Positions 2,697 through 48,786 of a DNA stretch of 64,000 bases are shown piece by piece (the stretch's first letter is position 1; every line of letters starts with the position of its first letter). This DNA is from Minisyncoccia bacterium. Its GTDB lineage: Bacteria; Patescibacteriota; Minisyncoccia; Phycocordibacterales; UBA918. The stretch covers positions 158,428-222,427 of the forward strand of contig JBKBPM010000002.1 of assembly GCA_046293175.1 (NCBI GenBank), in the 5' to 3' direction. The notes beneath the pieces were generated by a model, which worked only from the letters and a program-made list of their open reading frames with translations, was not told the origin of the DNA and did no database searches. The translations under genes were made by a program, and so were the position numbers.

Positions 2697-3136
2697 AATA
2701 GATTTAGTATATCAGAAAGTGAGCATTGGGGCGGGTAGCTTGACAAATAGTTGAGACTATGCTAGTATAGGTACGTTGAGTTCTCCAGTTCATGTAGTGT
2801 TATATCCAATCGGTATTACCTATTTGGCCGCTCTCCACAAAAAAATAACTAAAAAACGCCCACCAAGGCGCCTTTTATTGTGTTCAAGATGATAACTCTC
2901 TAAGCAACATGAGTACGTTGCGAGGATTGTGGGGTCCCACTCTTGAAGTGGAACACTCTGTATCCCCTTAGCGCGGTATTCACTTTCTATGCGGAAGCTT
3001 GCTTAGAGAGTTATACTCTCGAATACATCTCTATAAAGACGCTGTCAGGGAACTGATTGGTATGTCGACTATAGCGCAGTCATTCTTGTTTGCCTATATT
3101 GACCATATATCCTTTTCTTATTTGAATAAAGTCAAT

Positions 3137-3180: not shown

Positions 3181-4924
3181 AGACTATATACTTACTGATG
3201 TCGATTTCTTCATCTGACGCTGGCGGTAGGTCTTTAGTTCGTCGTACATTCTGAAGATCAACCACACGCTCGAGTTCATCAATTGTCGTGACACCAGCGA
3301 GTACCTTAATCATACCATCTTCCGCCATACTCGGAATTTTTTGTGGAGCAGCTGCATCAAGAATCATGACTTCACGAGGATCACGAATGACAATTTCCTC
3401 TACCGCATCATCAATAATGATTGCTTCAAATACACCCACTCGACCTTTAAAGCCGGTACCACCACAAACATCACAGCCAACACTTTCATAAATCGTTACT
3501 CCATCTGGGATTGTTACTGGTTCTGGATAATGAGCGAGGGTTTGTCGCATAATAGTTACTTGTTCTGGTGTTGCCACTACCGCTTTTTTACAGTGTGAAC
3601 AAAGGACACGAACGAGTCGTTGTCCGAGCATTACGTTAACTGAACTTCCGATAATACGTGGATCAACACCGAGGTCGATAAGGCGAGGGAAGCCACCAGC
3701 CGCACTGTTGGTGTGTAGTGTAGAAAATACCAAGTGACCAGTCTGGGCTGCGTGAATAGCGGTTTCGGCTACTTCACGGTCACGGATTTCTCCTACCATA
3801 ATGATGTCAGGGTCTTGACGGAGAATGGCACGAAGACCAGAGGCAAATGTGTAATCGGGTCCGATTTGGGTTTGGACAATACCGGTCAGTTTATATTCAA
3901 CAGGGTTTTCAATAGTGATGATTTTTTTCTCACTATCATGAACAGCCCGCAAAAATGCATAAAGGGCAGTGGTTTTACCTGAGCCAGTTGGACCGGTAGT
4001 AATAATAAGACCGTTTGGTCGCTTGAGTTCACGCTCCATCACTGCTTTAAGGTATGGGTTAAGGTCTAGTTTATCGATACTAAAACTCGCAACATTTGGG
4101 TCAAGGAGACGCATTACCATTGATTCGCCACTAGCACCGGGGATTACTGAGGCACGCACTTCAATCTCAGTTTCGCCAAAGACGAATTGAAATCGACCGT
4201 CTTGTGCTTCTTTACGTTCATTGAGGGTCATACCCGACAACAATTTGAGGCGACTCATTAACCGTCCATAGAGGTGACTGTCGATATCAGCAATATCAAG
4301 GAGTACACCATCAAGACGATAGCGGAGTCGAATACCAGTTGCCGCTGGTTCGATATGGATGTCAGATGCCTTGAGTGCGAGGGCTCCTGCGAACATAAGC
4401 TCAAGTGTTTCAGATATTTGGCGTGGGCTGTTAACGGATGAAATTTTTGTGAGACCTTGGTGTACATCACCAATCGTTTTGATGGTACCAGCAGTCGCAT
4501 TAATCGCATCAGTATTGATATCAAGTATCCCTTTCTTACTCGCGGTGGTCATTTTTTGATCTGCGTATCGGATGAGGCCGTGTTCGATACTGGCACGAGA
4601 AGCCAAAAAGACGGAGAGGGTATAACCAGCTTGTTTCAGCTCGTGTAGCAACTGTGCCGTATTTGGTTCTTGAGGGGCCATTACTGCTACCGAGAGGTTT
4701 TGACGCGTCAGGGCAAAAGCGATGACGTTGGCCTGCCTGGCCCGAACTTCCGGCACTTTCATGAGAGCTTCGGGATTGATAGTCACACCATGAAGGTCGA
4801 TATACTTCAGCCCGTATTTTGGTGCCAAACTTTGCATCAAAGCCTCCTCACCTCGCTTGCGAAGGTCAGCGATACGTTTATTAGTATCATCATCATGGAA
4901 CTGATTCATACCCGTATTGTACAT
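3179..4924 (-). CDS. pilB: Type IV pilus/type II secretion assembly ATPase, GspE/PilB family
   Basis: 581 aa; N-terminal GspE_N-like region, Walker A GPTGSGKTT, tetracysteine CSHC..CDVCGGTG motif. Confidence 0.85.
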   Translation of the reverse strand: MYNTGMNQFHDDDTNKRIADLRKRGEEALMQSLAPKYGLKYIDLHGVTINPEALMKVPEVRARQANVIAFALTRQNLSVAVMAPQEPNTAQLLHELKQAGYTLSVFLASRASIEHGLIRYADQKMTTASKKGILDINTDAINATAGTIKTIGDVHQGLTKISSVNSPRQISETLELMFAGALALKASDIHIEPAATGIRLRYRLDGVLLDIADIDSHLYGRLMSRLKLLSGMTLNERKEAQDGRFQFVFGETEIEVRASVIPGASGESMVMRLLDPNVASFSIDKLDLNPYLKAVMERELKRPNGLIITTGPTGSGKTTALYAFLRAVHDSEKKIITIENPVEYKLTGIVQTQIGPDYTFASGLRAILRQDPDIIMVGEIRDREVAETAIHAAQTGHLVFSTLHTNSAAGGFPRLIDLGVDPRIIGSSVNVMLGQRLVRVLCSHCKKAVVATPEQVTIMRQTLAHYPEPVTIPDGVTIYESVGCDVCGGTGFKGRVGVFEAIIIDDAVEEIVIRDPREVMILDAAAPQKIPSMAEDGMIKVLAGVTTIDELERVVDLQNVRRTKDLPPASDEEIDISKYIV

Positions 4925-9086: not shown

Positions 9087-9200
9087 GGTCACGAATCACT
9101 AAGTATATTTCTTCACTACGTTCGAAATCTACTAAGTGTTCGCGACCCCGCCTCGCGGTTTTCTGCTTTGGTCAAGCAGAAAACATCGCTGCGGCTCGCG
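9087..9200 (+). repeat. tRNA-downstream structured module, copy A (18-nt mini-repeat 9087-9104 + ~90-nt main repeat 9112-9200), antisense to tRNA-Lys
   Basis: ~80% identical to reverse complement of 36206-36290; the hairpin shows compensatory changes (GGTTTTCTGCTT/AAGCAGAAAACA here vs GGTTTTCTTTT/AAAAGAAAACA in copy B); partial copies at 32058-32118 and 33237-33302. Confidence 0.6.
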
Positions 9201-9236
9201 CCACCGTCGCAAGCAATACTAATTGCTTGCTAAACC

Positions 9237-9270
9237 AAAAACATCCCCATTAGCTAATGGGGATGTTTTT
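9237..9270. terminator. Intrinsic terminator hairpin AAAAACATCCCCATTAGCTAATGGGGATGTTTTT downstream of tRNA-Lys
   Basis: Perfect 12-bp stem flanked by A5/T5. Confidence 0.6.
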
Positions 9271-9279
9271 GGTTTTCGG

Positions 9280-16752: not shown

Positions 16753-16771
16753 AAGTTAAAAATAGCAGATA

Positions 16772-16803
16772 CCAAAAAAAGCGCCAGGTTGGCGCTTTTT
16801 TTG
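16772..16803. terminator. Intrinsic terminator AAAAAAAGCGCCAGGTTGGCGCTTTTTTT
   Basis: GC hairpin with flanking A/T runs after 14968..16752. Confidence 0.55.
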
Positions 16804-16828
16804 GTATCCACGAATTTAGTTTTAGAAA

Positions 16829-19931: not shown

Positions 19932-19938
19932 CTAATTA

Positions 19939-19980
19939 AAAAACAAAACACCCCACTTTGGTGGGGTGTTTTGTTTTTTA
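19939..19980. terminator. Bidirectional terminator AAAACAAAACACCCCACTTTGGTGGGGTGTTTTGTTTTTT between convergent genes
   Basis: Perfect GC-cored hairpin with symmetric A/T tracts. Confidence 0.6.
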
Positions 19981-20541
19981 ATTGAGTTGCCGCAGAGCTT
20001 CTCCGACAATTGCACTGGTCGAATCACCAGAACCAATCGCGTCAAGTACCTGCCGTACTGACTGTGGGTTGTACCCGAGCGTGACGAGTGTATCAAAGGC
20101 GTCTTGGTAGACGGTACCGCGTACCGGTGCAGTTGGTACAATTGTCGTATCAAGTTTGTCTTTGAGTCCGAGGATAATTTTTTCGGCCGTTTTTTTTGAA
20201 ATACTCGAGAGTTTTGTCAGGTGTAGTGGGTCTTCAGCAGCCACCGCTTCAACAATTAATGTACGATCAGCCTGGTCCATAATTTGGAGAGCACTTTTTG
20301 GTCCAATACCGGAGATGGTAAGGAGGAGTTCAAAGAGGTCGAGATCTTCACGGTTCACAAATCCATAGAGGTCTAAGGCGGTTTCGCGTACTGCCAGGTG
20401 CGTATAGAGACGAATGATTTCCCCTGGAAGGGTAATTAGTCGGTGGGTGACCGCTACCATATACCCAACGCCACTTGAGGTCTCAATAATAAGTGTGTTA
20501 CCGCTAGTCTCGACGACAGTGCCAGAAATGAGGCGAATCAT
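19978..20541 (-). CDS. ruvA: Holliday junction DNA helicase subunit RuvA
   Basis: Start taken at MIRLISGTVVE (canonical RuvA N-terminus) within ORF 19978..20583; HhH motifs ISGIGPKSA. Confidence 0.85.
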   Translation of the reverse strand: MIRLISGTVVETSGNTLIIETSSGVGYMVAVTHRLITLPGEIIRLYTHLAVRETALDLYGFVNREDLDLFELLLTISGIGPKSALQIMDQADRTLIVEAVAAEDPLHLTKLSSISKKTAEKIILGLKDKLDTTIVPTAPVRGTVYQDAFDTLVTLGYNPQSVRQVLDAIGSGDSTSAIVGEALRQLN

Positions 20542-20906: not shown

Positions 20907-20968
20907 ATCTTGGTAACAGAACAAAAACCACTCGCATGATGTGAGTGGTTTTTGTATACTAGTGGCAT

Positions 20969-21754: not shown

Positions 21755-21769
21755 CTCTCTTACCAATGC

Positions 21770-22400
21770 GCTAGTCTCTTTAACTATTACTCGGATATAT
21801 TCATCGGTGCAACACGATACTACAATTTACTTGATTGGAGTGAAATAAAGATTTCGTTATCGTAGCTGATTCCTTGATAATAGATTCGTACTATGAGACT
21901 TTGATTTTCAAAGTAATCTTTTGGACGAATAGATATTTTACGGTGATATATCTTGTTCAGTTTTAAGGGTATAACATCAATTTGGTATCGAAGTGGTTTA
22001 CCAGGAAGTGGTTCAAGGCTAAGTATTTCAATTTTTTCCGTCCCATTTATTACTTGTATCTCCATTTCTTTCGAAGGATATAACCATTCTAAAAGTACAC
22101 TTGGGATTCTAAAACGAAAGAGTCCATATCACACTTTTGGTTTAAGTGAAAAACTTATATCAGTTACAGTTAGATTGAAAGCCGCAGCTTCTGGCCAGAA
22201 TATGTTTTTTGATTTAAGAAATTATGAACTATGGATGTCTAAATCCTCTGGAATAAAGAAAACCTTAAACGTAAGAGGTATAAATTTCTTTAACAATGGT
22301 TTCATTGTAAATTTAATTACTCCTAGAATCAATGCCAAGCCAATAGTTATTTTAATCATAATGTTACATTTTACCACCTGAGAGAGATTCGGTCGCTACA
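21770..22400. other. AT-rich islet (~33% GC vs ~50% flanks) abutting the 3' end of tRNA-Ser; possible remnant of foreign DNA
   Basis: Compositional break visible by eye; only weak ORFs; ends at an inverted copy of the tRNA-Ser 3' end. Confidence 0.5.
21820..22065 (-). CDS. Hypothetical small protein inside AT-rich islet
   Basis: 81 aa, MEIQVINGTEKIEILSLEPLPGKPLRYQIDVIPLK; plausible beta-rich protein, no homology assignable. Confidence 0.3.
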   Translation of the reverse strand: MEIQVINGTEKIEILSLEPLPGKPLRYQIDVIPLKLNKIYHRKISIRPKDYFENQSLIVRIYYQGISYDNEIFISLQSSKL

Positions 22401-22496
22401 CGACCAGTACACCTTTTGGGTACTTTATTTCGCACGGCTCATAAAGTTCTGCAAAAGGTTTTCGAATCCCTACGCACAAGCTCCCAGCTTGTGCTC

Positions 22497-22556
22497 TCTC
22501 TCCGCGAACAAAAAAGGCGCCAAACGGCGCTCTATTTTGTACTCGCGGAGAGAGAG
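22497..22556. repeat. 14-bp perfect inverted repeat (CTCTCTCTCCGCGA / TCGCGGAGAGAGAG) made of the tRNA-Ser 3' acceptor end and an inverted copy, flanking a GC hairpin
   Basis: Read directly; inverted copy continues into a degenerate T-arm-like TTCGAATCCCT at 22474-22484. Confidence 0.6.
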
Positions 22557-22632
22557 GGATTCGAACCCTCGAGGAGCTTTCACCCCTAACAGTTTTCAAG
22601 ACTGCCGCCTTCAACCACTCAGCCATCTCTCC
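22546..22632 (-). tRNA. tRNA-Ser (anticodon TGA), long variable arm
   Basis: Manual fold: acceptor GGAGAGA/TCTCTCC, anticodon loop CTTGAAA, variable arm ~18 nt, T-arm GAGGGTTCGAATCCCTC; ORFs 22396..22749(-) and 22489..22815(+) are translation artefacts of this gene. Confidence 0.9.
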
Positions 22633-22756
22633 AATATATGCAATTTTTGTAGGTGGTTGAAGGTTCGTCCACCTGGCACTGGTTCGCTTTCGCTCACATC
22701 GTGCCTCCGCGATTTGATCGCGGAACGGATCAAAAGTGAAACTTTTCACTTTTCAT

Positions 22757-22774
22757 CCACTCAGCCATCTCTCC
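22757..22774 (-). repeat. Direct partial copy of tRNA-Ser 5' end (GGAGAGATGGCTGAGTGG) 125 nt upstream of the gene
   Basis: 18/18 identity to 22615-22632; followed by hairpin-rich sequence, no matching 3' half. Confidence 0.55.
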
Positions 22775-22899
22775 AAATATATTCAGTTGTGGCATGCACT
22801 ATAGCATTTTTTTGATTTTATACAACCATAGCTCGTAGGGGTGCGAGGGTAGGGGAAAGACCACTTTGACGTCCATCCCCATGCTAAAATAAAATTACT

Positions 22900-23370
22900 A
22901 TGAATGAAGCAATGCGGAGCATTACCTGGGAAGCCCCAGAACGTGCGCGTGGCGACAAAGGCGGGGATTGGTACTTTGCACTAAGTATTTTAACGGTGGC
23001 GGTAGTGATTGCCGCTATTATTTTTGGTAACTTCCTTTTTGCAATTTTGGCTGGTCTCTCTGGGGCGTCGCTCGCGGTCGCTGCGTCACAACCACCGCGG
23101 ATTATCCGGTACGGGGTCAGCGTCCGTGGGGTGCTTGAGGAGAACATCGTTCATCCTTTTGCGTCACTGCGGGCTTACTCGATTAATGAAGATGACCCGC
23201 GTGGGCCACAACTTCTCATTCTTTCGACGAAGACATTTGCCCCGATGATTGTCATGCCGATTCCCGAGGAATACATTGATGATATTGATGCTATCTTGTC
23301 TGAACGACTACCAGAGGAAGCTCTCGAGGAACCACTGTTTAATCGGTTGCTTGAACTAGCTGGATTCTGA
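22900..23370 (+). CDS. Hypothetical membrane protein (2 TM)
   Basis: 156 aa; TM YFALSILTVAVVIAAIIFGNFLFAILAGLSGASLAVA. Confidence 0.5.
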   Translation: MNEAMRSITWEAPERARGDKGGDWYFALSILTVAVVIAAIIFGNFLFAILAGLSGASLAVAASQPPRIIRYGVSVRGVLEENIVHPFASLRAYSINEDDPRGPQLLILSTKTFAPMIVMPIPEEYIDDIDAILSERLPEEALEEPLFNRLLELAGF

Positions 23371-23427
23371 TACTATCTTTCCCGTAACGTGACAAACAAA
23401 AAAGCTTGTGGTACTATGCCACGCATC

Positions 23428-23499
23428 GCTCTCATAGTTTAATGGATAGAATGCCGGTTTGCGGTACCTGCGATCCAGGTTCGATTCCTGGTGAGAGCA
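23428..23499 (+). tRNA. tRNA-Arg (anticodon GCG by manual fold; one C-T mismatch in anticodon stem)
   Basis: Perfect 7-bp acceptor GCTCTCA/TGAGAGC, T-arm CCAGGTTCGATTCCTGG, D-arm TAGTTTAATGGATAGAAT; TACTAT -10-like box 10 nt upstream; ORF 23406..23618 is an artefact. Confidence 0.7.
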
Positions 23500-23566
23500 C
23501 AAACGGCCGACCCATATGCGCAAGCATATGGGTCGTTGCCGTTTGTAGCTCTCACCAGGAATCGAA
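23481..23566. repeat. ~38-bp imperfect inverted repeat: tRNA-Arg 3' end plus trailer pairs with an inverted copy (loop CGCAAG)
   Basis: Arm 23481-23518 vs arm 23525-23566; followed by second GC hairpin 23569-23601. Confidence 0.6.
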
Positions 23567-23762
23567 AGACTGTTCCGGGGTCCCCTTAGGGCCGGAACAG
23601 TCCGGGTCGGGCGAATGAGATATTTTATGAGGCACGAAATAAAATATCCATGAGCGTGACCGATTCCTTCTAAAGAATTGCGTTAGGAATCGAAGCCCGA
23701 TTGAGCTGGATTATGAGCTTGCGAAATAATCCAGCCAATTGGGTGACTTCCCCTGTAAGGAC

Positions 23763-23782
23763 CGATTCCTGGTGAGAGCACA
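23763..23782 (+). repeat. Direct repeat of tRNA-Arg 3' end (CGATTCCTGGTGAGAGCACAA) ~270 nt downstream of the gene
   Basis: 20/20 identity with 23483-23502; att-like duplication signature but no integrase nearby. Confidence 0.55.
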
Positions 23783-23899
23783 ACTACGAAAAAGCGCACC
23801 CTTATGAGTGCATTTTTCGTTCGTGCTCCCATCAAAAACTACCTGAAGCATAATGTAAAACAGCATCCCTTTCGGGAGCTGTTTTACATGAGCTAATTA

Positions 23900-25795
23900 T
23901 TAATCGACAATTGTTACAACACTTGTCTCAAAGCGGTTTGCCGGAGCTGCTGTCCATGTTTGGTTTGGATTAGTAGCAGTTGCAGCATACTCGAGAGTGA
24001 GGAGTCGAAGTCGGCTTGATGTTAGCGGTGACTGTGGCTGGTGGGTAACTGAGAGGGTAACCGTCCTGGTCTGTCCTTCTGGAATAAAGAAGTAGTTCCC
24101 TTGTTCTCGAGCCGATGATGAGATGACGGCAGTACCAGTTGCAGAAAGACTATTTCCACTTGCGTCGCGAAGTTCATATGATATCGCAGCTGTATTTGAT
24201 GGCATATACACATCTTGGTTAATCGCTGTGACATCAATTGAAATCTGATAGGTGGCATAGTCATTTAGGCTGCCATTTGTACTTGTGACTACTGCATTGG
24301 TATTTTTGATAGTCACTGCCGCTCCAGCTGTTTGAAGAATATGGGTATCACCAGATACTGTGCCTGAGAGTTGGTTGCCGCTGAGATCGTCAGCACCTTC
24401 GGCTTTGATAGTCGAGCCAACCACGCGGCCTGAAATTGTGGTCCCTTCATACATTGCAGGTAAGGCTTTGAAGTCTACCTCAACAATAGCGGTGACTCTG
24501 TCGCCAGCATCTATGACCAGCTCATTGCTTTTAAAGTCGAATGTGACAATTCCTGTTGTGCCGTCAACAAGTGCTTTACGGGTATAGGTTTTACCATCAA
24601 TTATGATTCGCACGTCGCGCACCAACGTATTCATGGTTCCTGTACTGACGGATAATTCTATTGGTAGGCTGTTAATTTCTATGTCATTGATACTGTCATC
24701 AGTATCAAGGTCAAAGGCAAATACAGGGGTGAATCCTGAACGAGTAGTTCGATTGAGTACCAAAGTGGTGGCATCAATGTCATCATCACTAGTACGAATC
24801 ATCAATTCGTCACCAGTCCCCGCTTCTTCAAGTGTAATTTCAACTTGTTCACTATTATTGCCGATCTCAACCGTTGTTCGCTCTGCATCAAGAGCACGAA
24901 TACCGTTGTTTGGTACATAAACCGTCCAGTTTTCTCCATCACTGATACCGCGGATACTATTTGCAGCAGATACCTTAACTGTTAATTGTGTATCACTGTC
25001 TTCGGCTAGGAAGTGATTGAGACCTGAAATACGGAGCGTTGCTTCTCCTGTAGATCGGTTTATATCACGCCAAGCTGATTTTGAACTAGTATTAATGCGG
25101 GCAATACGGTTATTACCGTCCCAGATGCTCACGTCACTGAAAGTGTCCCAAGCATCCTTTTCATTGTTAGCAGTATTTGGTTTAAAAACCAAATCAATAC
25201 GTTGTAGTGTTGCGTCCCCGTCTTCTACGGTAAACTCGATATCAGCAATCGAACGGTTCTCGTCACGTTCTTCAAGAGTGGTATCATCTCCTGCTTTAAA
25301 TTGATAATCTCGAAACGAAGCTTCTCCCTGTGGGGTTGGATTTGTTGGAGTGGTGGTACCAGTGCCAGGGTTAATTGGAGTTGATACACAAGTTGCATTT
25401 ACTTTAGATCGAGTAACGGGACCGAAGTAACCAACGGCTGGTGTAATGTTTTGACTTCGCTGATAACTGCTAAGCGCTTGTCTTGTTTGTTCACCAAAAT
25501 ATCCTGTCGCTCCAGCAGAAATAGTGTGCCCTTTCGCTATAAGATACTGTTGTAGACGAGTAACTTCACTCCCGGTACGTCCAACCGTTAGATCTGATGT
25601 AAACGGAAGACAAGTCGTTGGGGCAGTGTTATTGCGCAATGCCTCAAGCTGTGCAAGTAATTGTGTAATCTGAGCTTGTAGATCTGCTACCGTGGTGTTA
25701 GCAGAGGCTGTGGGCGCAGGGACGCCCGCTGTCAAAAGGGAAAGTGCGAGCATACTGCCCACCACACCTTTCTGGATTTTAGAATACGGTTTCAT
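23900..25795 (-). CDS. Large secreted protein with peptidoglycan-binding (PG_binding_1-like) domain and long beta-rich C-terminal region
   Basis: Start moved to MKPYSKIQKGVVGSMLALSLLTAGVPAPTASA (signal peptide); TRLQQYLIAKGH...GYFGEQTRQALSSYQ resembles PG-binding repeat. Confidence 0.65.
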   Translation of the reverse strand: MKPYSKIQKGVVGSMLALSLLTAGVPAPTASANTTVADLQAQITQLLAQLEALRNNTAPTTCLPFTSDLTVGRTGSEVTRLQQYLIAKGHTISAGATGYFGEQTRQALSSYQRSQNITPAVGYFGPVTRSKVNATCVSTPINPGTGTTTPTNPTPQGEASFRDYQFKAGDDTTLEERDENRSIADIEFTVEDGDATLQRIDLVFKPNTANNEKDAWDTFSDVSIWDGNNRIARINTSSKSAWRDINRSTGEATLRISGLNHFLAEDSDTQLTVKVSAANSIRGISDGENWTVYVPNNGIRALDAERTTVEIGNNSEQVEITLEEAGTGDELMIRTSDDDIDATTLVLNRTTRSGFTPVFAFDLDTDDSINDIEINSLPIELSVSTGTMNTLVRDVRIIIDGKTYTRKALVDGTTGIVTFDFKSNELVIDAGDRVTAIVEVDFKALPAMYEGTTISGRVVGSTIKAEGADDLSGNQLSGTVSGDTHILQTAGAAVTIKNTNAVVTSTNGSLNDYATYQISIDVTAINQDVYMPSNTAAISYELRDASGNSLSATGTAVISSSAREQGNYFFIPEGQTRTVTLSVTHQPQSPLTSSRLRLLTLEYAATATNPNQTWTAAPANRFETSVVTIVD

Positions 25796-32057: not shown

Positions 32058-32118
32058 GGTCACCAGTCACTAATTATAATTGTTCACTACGTTCGAAATC
32101 TACTAAGTGTTCACGACC
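32058..32118 (+). repeat. tRNA-downstream module, partial copy C (mini-repeat + first ~36 nt of main repeat), antisense to tRNA-Arg(TCT)
   Basis: TTCACTACGTTCGAAATCTACTAAGTGTTC identical to copy A for 30 nt. Confidence 0.5.
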
Positions 32119-32249
32119 TTGGCTTGGAATCGTCCTGACGGTCACCAAGCTAGATTGTTTCGTATACACTCACAATCTAGCAGGTGCCGCGGGACACGGC
32201 TCGCCGGCCCTAAACTTGCAAAAGCGTCCCACGCTTTCTCACCCGGCTT

Positions 32250-32340
32250 TGCCGTTCGATTCCAAGCCGTGCCTACAAATGGCAACAGCCAGAACGCATG
32301 CGCGTGCTGGCTGGCCATTTGTGCCCCGGCTTGGAATCGA
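32250..32340. repeat. ~36-bp inverted repeat: tRNA-Arg(TCT) T-arm/acceptor/trailer pairs with an inverted copy; inner palindrome CGCATGCG
   Basis: Arm GTTCGATTCCAAGCCG.GGCACAAATGGC.AGCCAG on both strands; same architecture as at tRNA-Arg(GCG). Confidence 0.6.
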
Positions 32341-32392
32341 ACCAAGAATAACGGCTTAGAAGTCCGCAGTTATATCCATTTAACTACCGGGA
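32321..32392 (-). tRNA. tRNA-Arg (anticodon TCT)
   Basis: Manual fold: acceptor GTCCCGG/CCGGGGC (one G-U), D-arm GTTAAATGGATATAAC, anticodon loop CTTCTAA, T-arm CTTGGTTCGATTCCAAG; 72 nt; ORFs 32107..32406(+) and 32142..32345(-) are spurious. Confidence 0.7.
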
Positions 32393-33225: not shown

Positions 33226-33236
33226 GGGCGGGACTT

Positions 33237-33302
33237 GGTCATAAGTCACTAAGCTTTTTATTGAACTCAGTTCATAAAAATCTAAGTACTTGCGACCCCT
33301 CC
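33237..33302 (+). repeat. tRNA-downstream module, partial copy D, antisense to tRNA-Val
   Basis: GGTCATAAGTCACTAAGC + TTCATAAAAATCTAAGTACTTGCGACCCCTCC; ~75% identity to copy A. Confidence 0.5.
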
Positions 33303-33418
33303 TTGACTCTCTCTTTCTCCGCTTCGCTCCGAAATTCGCATGAGTCCCCGGCTTTCAAGTCCCTTATCGCCAGACCAACAGCAACGGCCGGAACACTAAC
33401 GTGTTCCGGCCGGCTGAT

Positions 33419-33494
33419 TGGTGGGCGATGAGGGACTTGAACCCCCGACCTTCTCAGTGTAAATGAGCTGCTCTACCAACTGAGCTAATCGCCC
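33419..33494 (-). tRNA. tRNA-Val (anticodon TAC), CCA encoded
   Basis: Manual fold: acceptor GGGCGAT/ATCGCCC, anticodon loop TTTACAC, T-arm GGGGGTTCAAGTCCCTC. Confidence 0.9.
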
Positions 33495-35930: not shown

Positions 35931-36040
35931 AGAATTTTCCTCACAAAAACCGAACGCCTCGTGCGCTCGGTTTTTGTTATGGTTGCAAATTACGTACTTT
36001 CCGTGCATAATGTCGCCACTTGAGAAATCAAGGGACACCT

Positions 36041-36124
36041 GCCCAGGTGGCGAAATTGGTAGACGCACTACCTTGAGGTGGTAGCGCCTTCACAGGCATG
36101 CTGGTTCAAATCCAGTCTTGGGCA
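36041..36124 (+). tRNA. tRNA-Leu (anticodon GAG), long variable arm, CCA not encoded
   Basis: Manual fold: acceptor GCCCAGG/CTTGGGC, anticodon stem CTACC/GGTAG loop TTGAGGT, T-arm CTGGTTCAAATCCAG. Confidence 0.9.
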
Positions 36125-36127
36125 CAA

Positions 36128-36155
36128 TATAAAAGACGCACCGAGGTGCGTCTTT
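36128..36155 (+). terminator. Intrinsic terminator AAAAGACGCACCGAGGTGCGTCTTTT after tRNA-Leu
   Basis: Perfect hairpin with A4/T4 flanks. Confidence 0.6.
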
Positions 36156-36205
36156 TATATTGTGCCCAAGAAGAAAAGCATTAATATGCTTTTCGTCTGG
36201 ATTTG

Positions 36206-36290
36206 AAAGCCGCAGCGTTGTTTTCTTTTAACAAAAAAGAAAACCGCGAGGCGGGGTCGAGAGTACTTAGATTTTTATGAACGAAGTGAA
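36206..36290 (-). repeat. tRNA-downstream module, copy B main repeat (reverse complement of copy A), antisense to tRNA-Leu; mini-repeat at 36523-36540
   Basis: ~80% identity to 9112-9200 with compensatory hairpin substitutions; mini-repeat ACTTAGTGATTCGTGACC identical to copy A. Confidence 0.6.
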
Positions 36291-36592
36291 ATAAAAAGCT
36301 TTGTAACTTGTGACCTAATCCAGTCTTGGTTATTCATAATACCGAAACGGGTGAGCCCTGGGTGAGAAATGGGAAAGGGACCCATTTCGCAAGACCTTTT
36401 GAGAAATCTTTTATTTCCAAAAGGGGTACTGCTCCTGTAAGGAGGAAGTTCTTACTAGAATTGGAGCGAAGCAAACAATTATAGTTAGCAACTTGACCCC
36501 AGTGAAAATACGCACCTCAAAAACTTAGTGATTCGTGACCAAGACAAACAACTTCTGACCAAATCCACTCTCTACACCACCGTCTATAGCTG

Positions 36593-37999
36593 ATGATATA
36601 CTACTCCCGTATGACCTACTCGCTTGCCCCACAGTTTCTAAAAGCCTTCAAAGATGCTGATATTCGTGGGACCTATCCCGAAGAGATTAACGAGGGAGTT
36701 GCCTACGCTGTAGCGCGTGCCTTTGTGGAGGAGTTTGCCTATACCAAGGTGGTGGTGGGACGAGATATGCGACTGTCTTCACCAGAGCTACACACCGCTT
36801 TTGTGGCTGGTGTGCGAGACGCCGGTGCGGACGTTATTGATGTGGGGATGGTAGCGACCCCACAGCTCTACTTTGCCTCTGGGTCCATGGATATCCCCGG
36901 GGTGATGATTACCGCCTCGCACAGTCCAGCTGAATATAATGGGATGAAGCTCGTGCATGCACAGGCGATACCGCTCACTAAGCGCAATGGCCTCGCGCAA
37001 CTCCTCAAACGAGTGAAAAAAGGGCAGCGGGTGACACCGAATAAAAAAGGAAAGTACACCAAAAAGAATATTGACGCTGGCTATCAGAAGCAAGTCCTCG
37101 CCGGCATCAAACCAAAGCGCTACGCCGGTATTCGTCTCGCGACCGATATTGGTAACGGGATGGCGCATGATATTGTGCCACTCTTAGCCGCAAAGCTCCC
37201 CATTAAGTTTGATACAATTTTTGCCCGCCGTGATGGTCATTTCCCGAATCGGGACTCTGATCCAAACCTCCGCGAGAATCAAATTGCGCTTGATAATAAA
37301 ATTGATCACGGTCACTATGACTTCGGTATCTCCTTTGATGGTGATGCTGACCGTATTGCTTTCTTAGACGAACATGGTAACTACGTAAACAGTGCCGCTA
37401 TTGGTGCCTTGATTGCGAAGCGTATTTTGGCTCGCGAACCAAAAGCGAAGATCGCCTCAACTAATCTCAATAGCCGTATCTACGACGAAACGATTAAAAA
37501 GCATGGAGGGAAAGTAGTAATGGCACGTACGGGACACACCTTTGTGAAAGAAGCGATGCGCAAACATCAAGCTGTCTTTGGTTGCGAATACTCAGGCCAC
37601 TTCTTCTTTCGTGATTTCTTTTATACCGATTCGGTGGTATTAACCCTCCGTGAGGTGCTTGATGCCTATGTCGAAGGTAAAGCCGCTGGGCAGACCTTCA
37701 GCCAGCTTATGGCACCGTACCTCATCTACGAACAGACCGAAGATATTGTCATACCAGTTAAAGATAAGGATGTCGCTATGGCGAAGGTTCATGACTATCT
37801 CGTCTCTCTAAAACCTAAAACACTCAAGAAATTTGATGGCTACTTTGTTGATTTCGGTGACGTGTGGGGTGCGGTCAAAATGAGTGTGACCGAATACGGC
37901 GTGAAGTTGATGTTTGAATCAACGAGCAAAACGAAAGCTCAAAAGCTTCAGCGGAAGATTCAGCAGTTTGTGAAATCGATTACCAAAGATACTCAATAG
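36593..37999 (+). CDS. Phosphoglucomutase/phosphomannomutase family protein
   Basis: 468 aa; active-site ITASHSPAEYNGMK, metal loop FDGDADR. Confidence 0.8.
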   Translation: MIYYSRMTYSLAPQFLKAFKDADIRGTYPEEINEGVAYAVARAFVEEFAYTKVVVGRDMRLSSPELHTAFVAGVRDAGADVIDVGMVATPQLYFASGSMDIPGVMITASHSPAEYNGMKLVHAQAIPLTKRNGLAQLLKRVKKGQRVTPNKKGKYTKKNIDAGYQKQVLAGIKPKRYAGIRLATDIGNGMAHDIVPLLAAKLPIKFDTIFARRDGHFPNRDSDPNLRENQIALDNKIDHGHYDFGISFDGDADRIAFLDEHGNYVNSAAIGALIAKRILAREPKAKIASTNLNSRIYDETIKKHGGKVVMARTGHTFVKEAMRKHQAVFGCEYSGHFFFRDFFYTDSVVLTLREVLDAYVEGKAAGQTFSQLMAPYLIYEQTEDIVIPVKDKDVAMAKVHDYLVSLKPKTLKKFDGYFVDFGDVWGAVKMSVTEYGVKLMFESTSKTKAQKLQRKIQQFVKSITKDTQ

Positions 38000-39126: not shown

Positions 39127-39177
39127 TGTTCAAGTATAGAATAGTAGCAGGTTAGACGCCAGATGGCATTTTTATTG

Positions 39178-39250
39178 GGCGGCTACCGGGAATTGAACCC
39201 GAATTGAGAGTTCCACAAACTCCAGTAATAACCATTATACCATAGCCGCC
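39178..39250 (-). tRNA. tRNA-His (anticodon GTG) with genomically encoded G-1
   Basis: Manual fold: G-1 + acceptor GCGGCTA/TAGCCGC, anticodon loop TTGTGGA, T-arm TCGGGTTCAATTCCCGG. Confidence 0.85.
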
Positions 39251-47734: not shown

Positions 47735-47750
47735 TTTAATCGATTTAGGC

Positions 47751-47783
47751 AACACAAAAGACCCCGCCGGGGTCTTTTGTTTT
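47751..47783 (+). terminator. Intrinsic terminator AAAAGACCCCGCCGGGGTCTTTTGTTTTG
   Basis: GC hairpin plus U-tract. Confidence 0.6.
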
Positions 47784-47882
47784 GCCTGCGGTTGACACCC
47801 TCATAACGGGGGAGTATAGTAGTACTAAATCGCCCCCGAGGCGTTTTTATTTTGACCACCTATTCGTTAATTAATTACTATT

Positions 47883-48622: not shown

Positions 48623-48755
48623 ACGGGCAAATAGCTTTGTCGGTACGAAGTTTTTCTCAGTCATCGTACAAGAAGTACGCCTTCTTCCAAAAATTTCTAG
48701 CCTCCTCGCTCTTTATCCCGTTTCTACATTTTTAGAAGTCTAAGCAAGACAATAA

Positions 48756-48786
48756 AGACGCCGGCCTATAGGCCGGCGTCTTTAGA
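48756..48786 (+). terminator. Intrinsic terminator AAAGACGCCGGCCTATAGGCCGGCGTCTTT after nusG
   Basis: Perfect 11-bp stem. Confidence 0.6.

Follow-up and report, generated by a model that had tools for sequence, protein, structure and literature searches.

Composite palindromic units behind tRNA genes of Patescibacteria: a candidate family of small site-specific insertion elements

The 3' ends of transfer RNA (tRNA) genes, transfer-messenger RNA (tmRNA) genes and protein genes are the sites that tyrosine integrases classically target. When a single strand whose hairpin stem mimics the target integrates, as for attP(+) of CTX-phi, the resulting order is site, loop, inverted site, body, site; integron attC sites are strand-specific folded sites with extrahelical bases, conserved in structure. 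The recombinases in these two cases are XerCD or IntI, with one fixed target (dif or attI). Insertion sequences (IS) of the IS91 family insert 3' of 5'-GTTC or GTCC, have a subterminal palindrome beside the GTTC cleavage site and co-mobilise adjacent DNA (PMC13181058). In IS608 the guide sits inside the element, at the 5' foot of a hairpin, and picks the target by pairing with the flank (PMC3201880); a change of guide retargets insertion in the IS200/IS605 group (PMC3201880, PMC5934647). Here we describe composite units behind the tRNA genes in a 64,000-nt stretch of a Minisyncoccia bacterium genome (Patescibacteriota; assembly GCA_046293175.1, contig JBKBPM010000002.1, positions 158,428 to 222,427; hereafter the window). 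We give even chances to their being a family of small (about 130-280 bp), gene-less, site-specific, non-autonomous insertion elements at tRNA and tmRNA 3' ends, and occasionally in protein genes, in Patescibacteria.

Six of the seven tRNA genes in the window (Ser, Lys, Arg(GCG), Arg(TCT), Val and Leu) carry a composite element on their 3' side, on the tRNA strand. Read on that strand, the order is the tail of the gene (A), a hairpin (H1), a reverse complement of the tail (A'), two further hairpins (H3 and H4) and, often, a direct copy of the tail (A2). H4 follows the pattern GGTCG-N19-GAACGnAGTGAA-N17-19-GTGACC. Behind Arg(GCG), Arg(TCT), Val and Leu, the reverse complement of the gene's own T-loop-to-3'-end segment lies beyond a perfect inner hairpin; Lys has a shorter version. 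Five window tRNAs other than tRNA-Ser gave full matches to an H4 covariance model, at 42-85 bits; the tRNA-Lys element scored 85 bits and has a predicted fold of -111 kcal/mol (z = -13.5), while the fold of the tRNA-Arg(GCG) units reaches z = -14. Every window match with E < 0.1 is downstream of a tRNA, and below E = 1e-6 the strand is always that of the tRNA; weaker opposite-strand matches are mirror images of these same hairpins. The sole window tRNA with neither element nor terminator is tRNA-His (39177-39249), where the next gene lies ~50 nt downstream.

We scanned 185,579 species genomes with the H4 pattern; fetched loci are labelled L001 and so on. The scan returned 101 stretches against ~12 expected by chance, a rough estimate rather than a computed control. 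About 97 of them are in metagenome-assembled genomes (MAGs) of Patescibacteria: Kaiser-, Yonath- and Nomurabacteria, Paceibacteria, Parcubacteria, WWE3 and MAGs labelled Saccharibacteria. L022, L065, L086 and L102 were excluded as GC-rich chance matches in coding DNA of other phyla. L008 and L061, contigs of a MAG labelled Patiriisocius (Flavobacteriaceae), have typical Patescibacteria elements and tRNA contexts; that MAG is likely mis-binned or mislabelled. A same-strand tRNA was found within 600 nt upstream of 75 of 108 modules, usually at 100-137 nt, with 26 anticodons represented. No canonical module was present at 54 of the 134 tRNAs of the fetched loci, mostly bystanders, and about 60% of tRNAs carry the element. 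Outside the window, tRNA-His had it in two of five assessable loci (e.g. L096). Identical 61-mers are shared by different species, and near-identical cores occur behind different tRNAs, such as Arg(TCT) of the window and Ser of L001.

To quantify copying of the gene tail, 59 tRNA-element pairs drawn from many genomes were compared with controls in which the tail came from a different tRNA. In 81% of the pairs, versus 3.9% of controls, the unit has a stretch of at least 9 nt exactly complementary to the tail of its own tRNA (A'), and 31% versus 0.9% have an A2 of at least 8 nt. The arm A' is 7-25 nt long, with one or two hairpins between it and the target; in short-class units it spans exactly tRNA positions 70-76 (NNN, discriminator, CCA) plus the trailer. 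Right junctions fall at two discrete places. The first three bases past GTGACC fit tRNA position 57 in 26 of the 59 copies and the discriminator in 24, and at discriminator-type junctions the base agrees with the tRNA concerned (G for Trp, A for the others). Direct repeats come in two length classes plus a 37-nt case: 2-4 nt or, in long-class units, 20-37 nt. A' always extends 2-3 nt past the repeat. Between A and A2 lie 130-280 bp that hold no open reading frame (ORF), and A2 is followed by the original trailer and terminator of the gene.

The same architecture was found at targets other than tRNA genes. In three MAGs an element sits inside the 3' end of an ftsZ-like gene ending in DDWGAVPAFLRRSKLK before the stop (L032, ~4268-4600, minus strand; L046, 2678-3000, minus strand; L101, 5100-5460). 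Past GTGACC, L046 and L101 have a second copy of as much as 37 nt of the gene end, stop codon included, and A' matches the start of this repeat; the repeat of L032 is degenerate. Genes for tmRNA, ending in ATCTCCACCA, lie directly 5' of the copies in L033, L051, L056 and L082, where A' and A2 match the tmRNA tail.

Occupancy also differs between close relatives. The orthologous tRNA-Arg(GCG) site is recognisable in several genomes by a shared upstream 156-aa gene, promoter and downstream terminator. In the window, two tandem long-class units occupy it; in L042 and L105 a single short-class unit directly follows the discriminator. In L001 the second unit is a different one. Its A' fits another tRNA, and so A' travels with the unit. 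Second units show central deletions of their palindromes. The class switching, tandem arrays, decaying A2 and foreign A' are hallmarks of insertion rather than of a built-in signal.

The two halves of the composite differ in their folding. H4 is a hairpin of about 24 bp in which 12 pairs show double changes; it has conserved G.T, A.G, T.T and G.A oppositions, a bulged A and an invariant loop. In its variable pairs G.T outnumbers A.C by 25:4, and the tRNA-sense strand is thus the folding strand, whether in RNA or in single-stranded DNA. Although the search pattern did not include the base of H3 (xyCGnAG...CGAGy'x'GG), this base is conserved and covarying (six pair types), with a conserved G.A-type internal loop. 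H1, by contrast, is near-perfect across the family, with arms averaging 17 bp (up to 29), loops of 0-4 nt and equal numbers of G.T and A.C mismatches (5 each); the arms can attain 18-29 bp and, in 7 of 58 copies, run into the tRNA itself. Mismatches in the A:A' stem are likewise without strand bias (12:8). From these mismatch biases, the left half therefore behaves like a symmetric DNA palindrome or bidirectional terminator and the right half like a strand-specific fold.

The tRNA-Ser(TGA) locus (Table 1) was the starting point. A sequence-only reading of it had described an inverted copy of the tRNA-Ser tail around a GC hairpin, continuing into a "degenerate" T-arm. The inverted copy and the hairpin are there as described; the T-arm part is not degenerate, being an exact 11-nt complement. 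The repeated segment A runs from the T-loop to the 3' end plus trailer (about 22542-22565), and the inverted arms (22494-22515 and 22535-22556) are 22 nt long and 86% complementary, with a 19-nt spacer. H1 forms the apex of the A-H1-A' palindrome and scored as terminator-like on both strands; at this tRNA it is H1 alone, and not the remainder of the element, that qualifies as an intrinsic terminator. The whole stretch has a predicted fold of -76 kcal/mol (z = -9.1). A' is interrupted by H2, which occupies an equivalent place behind the window tRNA-Leu and in L011, L012, L017, L023, L026, L036, L039 and L042.

Beyond A', the core hairpin at tRNA-Ser matches the H4 model only in part (22420-22449, minus strand, model positions 16-45, E = 6.4), with its tip matching the H4 loop motif. 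We interpret this unit as a type B variant, with A' split by H2 and a core that seems to keep only the apex of H4. The collected sequences contain 21 occurrences of the type B right-end motif, and shuffles 2.8. For most of these, a tRNA lies 85-340 nt to the 5' side (Ser, Leu, Arg and Trp are represented), and the tail of that tRNA follows the motif; the orthologous tRNA-Ser genes of L042 and L064 are among the carriers.

Among relatives, the L042 unit is 82% identical over window positions 22459-22632 (tRNA, H1, A' and H2) and has an intact 21-nt A2 at the place of the decayed window A2. A-H1-A' was found at six of six comparable tRNA-Ser(TGA) loci, four of which also have A2; in the sixth locus, L052, masked bases (N, ~4100-4200) cover most of the element, which is readable from the 3' arm of H1 and A' onward. 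L002, from an independent sequencing run, is 100% identical to the window haplotype. In L001 the flanks are 95-98% identical, and window positions 21755-22879 are replaced by a different 1.1-kb segment.

An adjacent AT-rich islet had been taken as part of the evidence for recombination here. The islet is real; its ORFs are an 81-aa orphan (21820-22065, minus strand) and a 45-aa one. It is not part of the recurrent architecture, being missing from the tRNA-Ser loci of all five relatives (among them L001, L042, L095 and L028), and it is a strain-specific passenger outside the element. By the refuting condition attached to the sequence-only reading, five orthologous loci with the repeats and without the islet argue against a one-off integration scar. 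From the proposal of a recombination scar at a tRNA hotspot, inserted DNA and a strain-variable locus (L001) are borne out; a conventional integrase-island scar is not, and neither is any specificity for Ser. The 81-aa ORF may be a real orphan gene: a search of 5.8 billion proteins gave two homologues, one of them identical and the other 68% identical along the full length, in contexts that are uninformative.

A direct copy of the tRNA-Ser 5' end, followed by hairpins, had also been reported upstream. This was confirmed: 22610-22634 recurs at 22752-22776 (25 nt, 96% identity, spacing 142 nt), the leader is duplicated as well (about 13 nt, 85% identity, 22633-22645 and 22776-22788), and the DNA between the two copies is predicted to form four hairpins (z = -6.4). 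The copy and its flank (22759-22813) align to the tRNA-Ser 5' end and to the 3' end of an HNH endonuclease gene in L001, and 22717-22788 occupies the position of the tRNA-Ser gene in relatives. That 183-aa HNH gene (L001 2432-2983) is conserved upstream of tRNA-Ser(TGA) in five relatives and deleted in the window. The H3 subtype motif TGTGAGC-N-GCGAAC has a single window occurrence (0.00 expected by chance), which lies between the two 5' copies; in four other loci it stands within 30 nt 5' of an H4 match (L012, L061, L090 and L094; in this tally L002 counts as the window haplotype and L052 is left out). We infer that 22652-22788 is a decayed older tRNA-Ser with its decayed short-class unit. 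The older gene and its element would have decayed, and the second tRNA-Ser, with the type B unit, would now do the work.

Table 1. Coordinates of tRNA-associated elements and neighbouring features in the window
Feature	Position	Strand	Details
tRNA-Ser(TGA), intact	22545-22632	minus	ARAGORN; Rfam RF00005, 59.1 bits
tRNA-Ser trailer (X) and H1	22508-22541	both directions	GC hairpin 22516-22531 with A run and T run either side
tRNA-Ser A', acceptor part	22494-22507	minus	CTCTCTCTCCGCGA, reverse complement of acceptor 3' strand and trailer; 14 nt exact
tRNA-Ser H2	22472-22493	minus	22 nt; 9-bp hairpin between acceptor and T-arm parts of A'
tRNA-Ser A', T part	22461-22471	minus	TTCGAATCCCT, exact 11-nt complement of T-loop and T-stem 3' strand (22555-22565; tRNA positions 54-64)
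Core hairpin of type B unit	22411-22460	minus	tip TTTATGAGCCGTGCGAAATAAA resembles apical H4
Type B right-end module	22391-22410	minus	GTACTG and mini-hairpin GGTCG-TGTA-GCGACC
A2 remnant	22380-22390	minus	GAATCTCTCTC, decayed direct copy of tRNA-Ser tail from T-loop position 57
AT-rich islet	21755-22379	minus	GC 0.29-0.36 vs about 0.47 for window
Putative decayed short-class element	22652-22716	minus	A'-like ATCGCGGAGG 22705-22714; H3 22672-22706; possible H4 stump 22652-22673
Putative decayed older tRNA-Ser	22717-22788	minus	13 nt leader, first 25 nt of tRNA, hairpin, T-loop/3'-end remnants (TTGATCC, GTTCCGCGA)
Remnant of HNH-endonuclease gene 3' end	22800-22835		about 35 nt
Short-class element, tRNA-Lys	9087-9279	minus	H1 9232-9275; H2 9209-9231; A' 9196-9206; H3 9148-9195; H4 9087-9147
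Two tandem long-class units, tRNA-Arg(GCG)	23480-23782	plus	A 23480-23507; H1 23508-23535; A' 23548-23566; H3 23568-23602; H4 23605-23661; second unit 23662-23761; A2 CGATTCCTGGTGAGAGCACAA 23762-23782; original terminator 23786-23818
Two units, tRNA-Arg(TCT)	32058-32342	minus	H1 32286-32313; A' 32254-32269; H4-like 32131-32196; A2 about 32119-32130; second H4 32058-32118
Long-class unit, tRNA-Val	33230-33441	minus	H1 33385-33412; A' 33354-33382; H4 33237-33297; short A2
Units, tRNA-Leu(GAG)	36116-36500	plus	56-nt perfect palindrome 36116-36171 including last 10 nt of tRNA, then H2; A' T part 36199-36209; H3 36210-36254; H4 36255-36315; A2 36316-36330; second H4 36444-36500

Other palindromes were noted in the window. 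Long intergenic ones, near-perfect and with A and T runs, lie at 16759-16817, 19934-19983, 20921-20955, 47747-47787 and 48753-48784, and bidirectional terminators appear to be the norm in the source genome. An inverted repeat at 2879-3027, between ruvB and a type II/IV secretion ATPase gene (29-nt arms, 86% complementary, 91 nt apart), is unrelated to the tRNA elements.

Several described systems share part of this design. IS91 elements target GTTC, GTCC and CTTG. The long-class and type B units have junctions right after T-loop G53-T-T-C56; GTTC is universal in T-loops, however, and short-class junctions follow other GNNC sequences that lack the conserved position-2 T of IS91. In IS91 the ter-end palindrome adjoins the cleavage site; here type B mini-hairpins end in TGTTC and H4 in GACC, exactly at the junction, and both systems have palindromes at the other end too. 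Co-mobilisation of adjacent DNA would explain the carried tRNA tail. Members of the IS91 family (IS91, IS801, IS1294) differ from our units in being about 1.5 kb and autonomous, in lacking both a target-complementary arm and a direct repeat, and in not being tRNA-specific. The IS200/IS605 group, palindrome-associated transposable elements (PATEs) and repetitive extragenic palindromes with their tyrosine transposases (REP/RAYT) share with the units strand-specific, subterminal, imperfect hairpins with bulges and mismatches, and short gene-less intergenic copies. Like IS608, a unit contains a complement of the flank on its left; IS608 has a 4-nt guide and no duplication, whereas here the arm is 7-25 nt, the repeats are 2-4 nt or 20-37 nt, and no Y1 transposase was found. 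Specificity for tRNA tails is not known from that family, and the units lack part of the defining features of IS91 and IS608 alike.

The order site, inverted site, body, site and a strand-specific conserved fold recall CTX-phi and attC, but the present units are gene-less, address dozens of tRNA tails and have an A' that fits the integrated junction slightly better than a putative circle junction. Tyrosine-integrase islands target protein-gene 3' ends and the 3' portions of tRNA and tmRNA genes, in many cases from the T-loop on, and they too restore the gene and leave a direct repeat. They bring an integrase gene and are kb-sized; the units are about 200 bp, with an inverted copy of the repeat and a structured module, at nearly all tRNA species. 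Nor is this a classical miniature inverted-repeat transposable element: left and right ends are unrelated, the inverted repeat pairs the target tail with an internal arm, and repeat length is not fixed. H1 resembles a bidirectional intrinsic terminator, its GC-rich stem lying immediately behind the tRNA with an A run on one side and a T run on the other; it differs in its long arms, which can enter the tRNA, and in the conserved non-terminator modules that follow it.

On the insertion reading, the unit would bring a replacement target tail (A), so that the gene stays intact. H1, sometimes with H2, would supply a near-perfect palindrome resembling a bidirectional terminator, and the conserved strand-specific module (H3 and H4, or the type B mini-hairpin) would end exactly at GTGACC; A2 would be the displaced original tail, leading into the original trailer and terminator of the gene. 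The left junction would lie at the discriminator/CCA end in both classes, with the right flank restarting at the discriminator or at position 57. The element probably moves as a folded single strand, more likely DNA than RNA, and would be handled in trans by an HUH-type enzyme (as for IS91 or IS200/IS605) or another hairpin-recognising recombinase. A' could pair with the target tail and thereby select and position the insertion site, with joining after a C that would be single-stranded in a cloverleaf of the tRNA-gene strand, either past G53-T-T-C56 or at the discriminator end of the acceptor stem. We put forward only tentatively, as rather improbable, the stronger claim that this is a previously unrecognised base-pairing-targeted transposition system, with a programmable A' of 7-25 nt, H3-H4 recruiting the enzyme and joining at cloverleaf-exposed sites: a natural insertion machinery for single strands (DNA or RNA), retargetable and specific for tRNA ends. 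That both the targeting principle and the enzyme are new is a real possibility.

We searched for such an enzyme and for known families. At the gathering threshold, Rfam (4227 families) found only tRNAs in the whole window; permissive scans of 22300-23900 and 36030-36620 gave only sub-threshold matches, mostly to microRNA precursors, as expected of long hairpins. Two core patterns had 0 matches in viral contigs, the full unit had no blastn match among phages and plasmids, and a literature search for such an element in Patescibacteria, or the Candidate Phyla Radiation (CPR), found no relevant description. No HUH Y2 transposase was seen among the ~45 window ORFs or the recurrent ORF families of ~100 loci.

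Two neighbouring genes were considered as companions of the element and rejected: the HNH gene, whose place beside tRNA-Ser(TGA) is conserved, and a gene with an HTH_23 domain, found beside tRNA-Gly(GCC) in three of its five loci. Neither accompanies the element in general. In L001 and L037 the gene of the HTH_23 protein (~220 aa, N-terminal domain; L001 4398-5078) directly precedes tRNA-Gly(GCC) in the same orientation; in L044 it is adjacent to that tRNA. L091 and L104 have a 1.2-1.6-kb gap between tRNA and module; the gap in L091 holds a membrane protein only.

Other identities for the composite were also set aside. A tRNA-like or minihelix gene on the opposite strand would lack the 5' strand of its T-stem, and the G.U bias favours the tRNA strand. 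A T-loop intron or split tRNA does not fit an A2 that is usually decayed. As a primer-binding site for mature tRNA, A' should match CCA; wherever CCA is unencoded, A' matches the gene trailer instead. Neither a small self-cleaving ribozyme (no Rfam match) nor domain V of a group II intron (no match) was detected.

Several results weigh against insertion elements. Among the about 45 window ORFs scanned with Pfam there is no transposase, integrase or reverse transcriptase, only housekeeping genes, and no enzyme family recurs beside the copies: clustering of 939 ORFs from ~100 loci gave only syntenic housekeeping families. Neither an autonomous copy nor an excised circle turned up, nor any pair of empty and filled sites with a difference of exactly one unit. 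The match of A' to the integrated junction is 2-3 nt better than its match to a hypothetical circle junction would be. The analogy to IS91 and IS200/IS605 is loose, as these make no target duplication and guides are 4 nt rather than 7-25 nt. A functional RNA would be just as compatible with the G.U bias, the G.A internal loops and the very high sequence conservation of H3 and H4, and retention of the architecture at six of six tRNA-Ser(TGA) loci could reflect a function.

These last two points lead to a host cis-acting RNA module, which we regard as unlikely. H1 would terminate transcription; in read-through transcripts A' would pair alternatively with the tail or with A2, and H3/H4 would bind a protein, together controlling pre-tRNA 3' processing, quality control or stability in genomes as reduced as these. 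Such a module would account for the constant placement on the tRNA strand, for the 25:4 excess of G.U over A.C in H4 with its conserved G.A, G.U and U.U non-canonical pairs and invariant loop, for the G.A-type internal loop at the H3 base, for a short-class A' exactly over positions 70-76 plus trailer, for the recurrence at all six tRNA-Ser(TGA) loci and for extremely stable folds. It sits poorly with the many tRNAs that lack it (tRNA-His in the window and the 54 of 134, mostly bystanders, in the loci), with its presence in ftsZ 3' ends together with a duplicated gene end, and with decaying A2, tandem arrays, foreign A' and class switching at one orthologous tRNA. With a strong bidirectional terminator-like palindrome (H1) ahead of them, A', H3 and H4 should seldom be reached by transcription from the tRNA promoter; neither H1 nor A:A' shows an RNA-strand bias in its mismatches, and a full A:A' duplex would unfold the tRNA. 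The sequence-only reading had offered a processing or termination structure as its second option: the termination part survives, H1 being a plausible terminator, while purely built-in processing is opposed by the direct repeats, the tandem arrays and the ftsZ insertions.

The insertion reading shares with a further explanation, attL/attR scars of integrase-borne islands or prophages that repeatedly entered tRNA genes and were later deleted, the direct tail repeats from the T-loop through the 3' end, the original trailer and terminator past the distal copy, and the set of tRNA, tmRNA and protein-gene 3' ends as targets; the strain-variable tRNA-Ser locus with its adjoining islet would suit such scars too. 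We nevertheless consider scars improbable. Random deletion remnants would not give ~100 copies of 130-280 bp units with conserved internal structure; one integrase lineage could not recognise at least 26 different tails, and integrase scars have no inverted copy of the whole identity block. The ORF surveys of the window and loci gave no integrase, and the searches of viral contigs, phages and plasmids gave no matches. The least probable account, in our estimate a very small chance, is a mutational by-product, in which terminator hairpins grow to palindromes by intramolecular template switching during replication and the inverted tail copy has neither function nor mobility. H1 and A:A' do look like products of that process, being near-perfect palindromes whose arms reach 27-29 bp around loops of 0-4 nt and whose mismatch types lack strand asymmetry, and so do the central palindrome deletions in second units. 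Template switching leaves unexplained, however, why H3-H4 directly follows A', the sharp boundary after GTGACC, the direct A2, the two discrete junction positions and the restriction to one phylum, and the unit with a foreign A' shows A' to be inherited with the unit. What the insertion-element family has in its favour are the observed architecture and its statistics, the restriction to one phylum, the turnover between close relatives, the tandem arrays and the non-tRNA targets.

If the RNA module were the true reading, the composites would mark a phylum-specific step in tRNA biogenesis. If the insertion-element family is real, some of the smallest bacterial genomes would devote a noticeable share of their scarce intergenic DNA to one element family, which would have colonised many tRNA 3' flanks without breaking genes, each copy supplying a spare tail and a terminator. 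It would be a compact natural case of target choice by base pairing, with an arm that co-varies with at least 26 tRNA tails, and H3-H4 would offer a handle for finding the enzyme. CPR genomics would also be affected, since the palindromes and repeats would fragment assemblies, interfere with the annotation of tRNAs and terminators, and look like integration scars.

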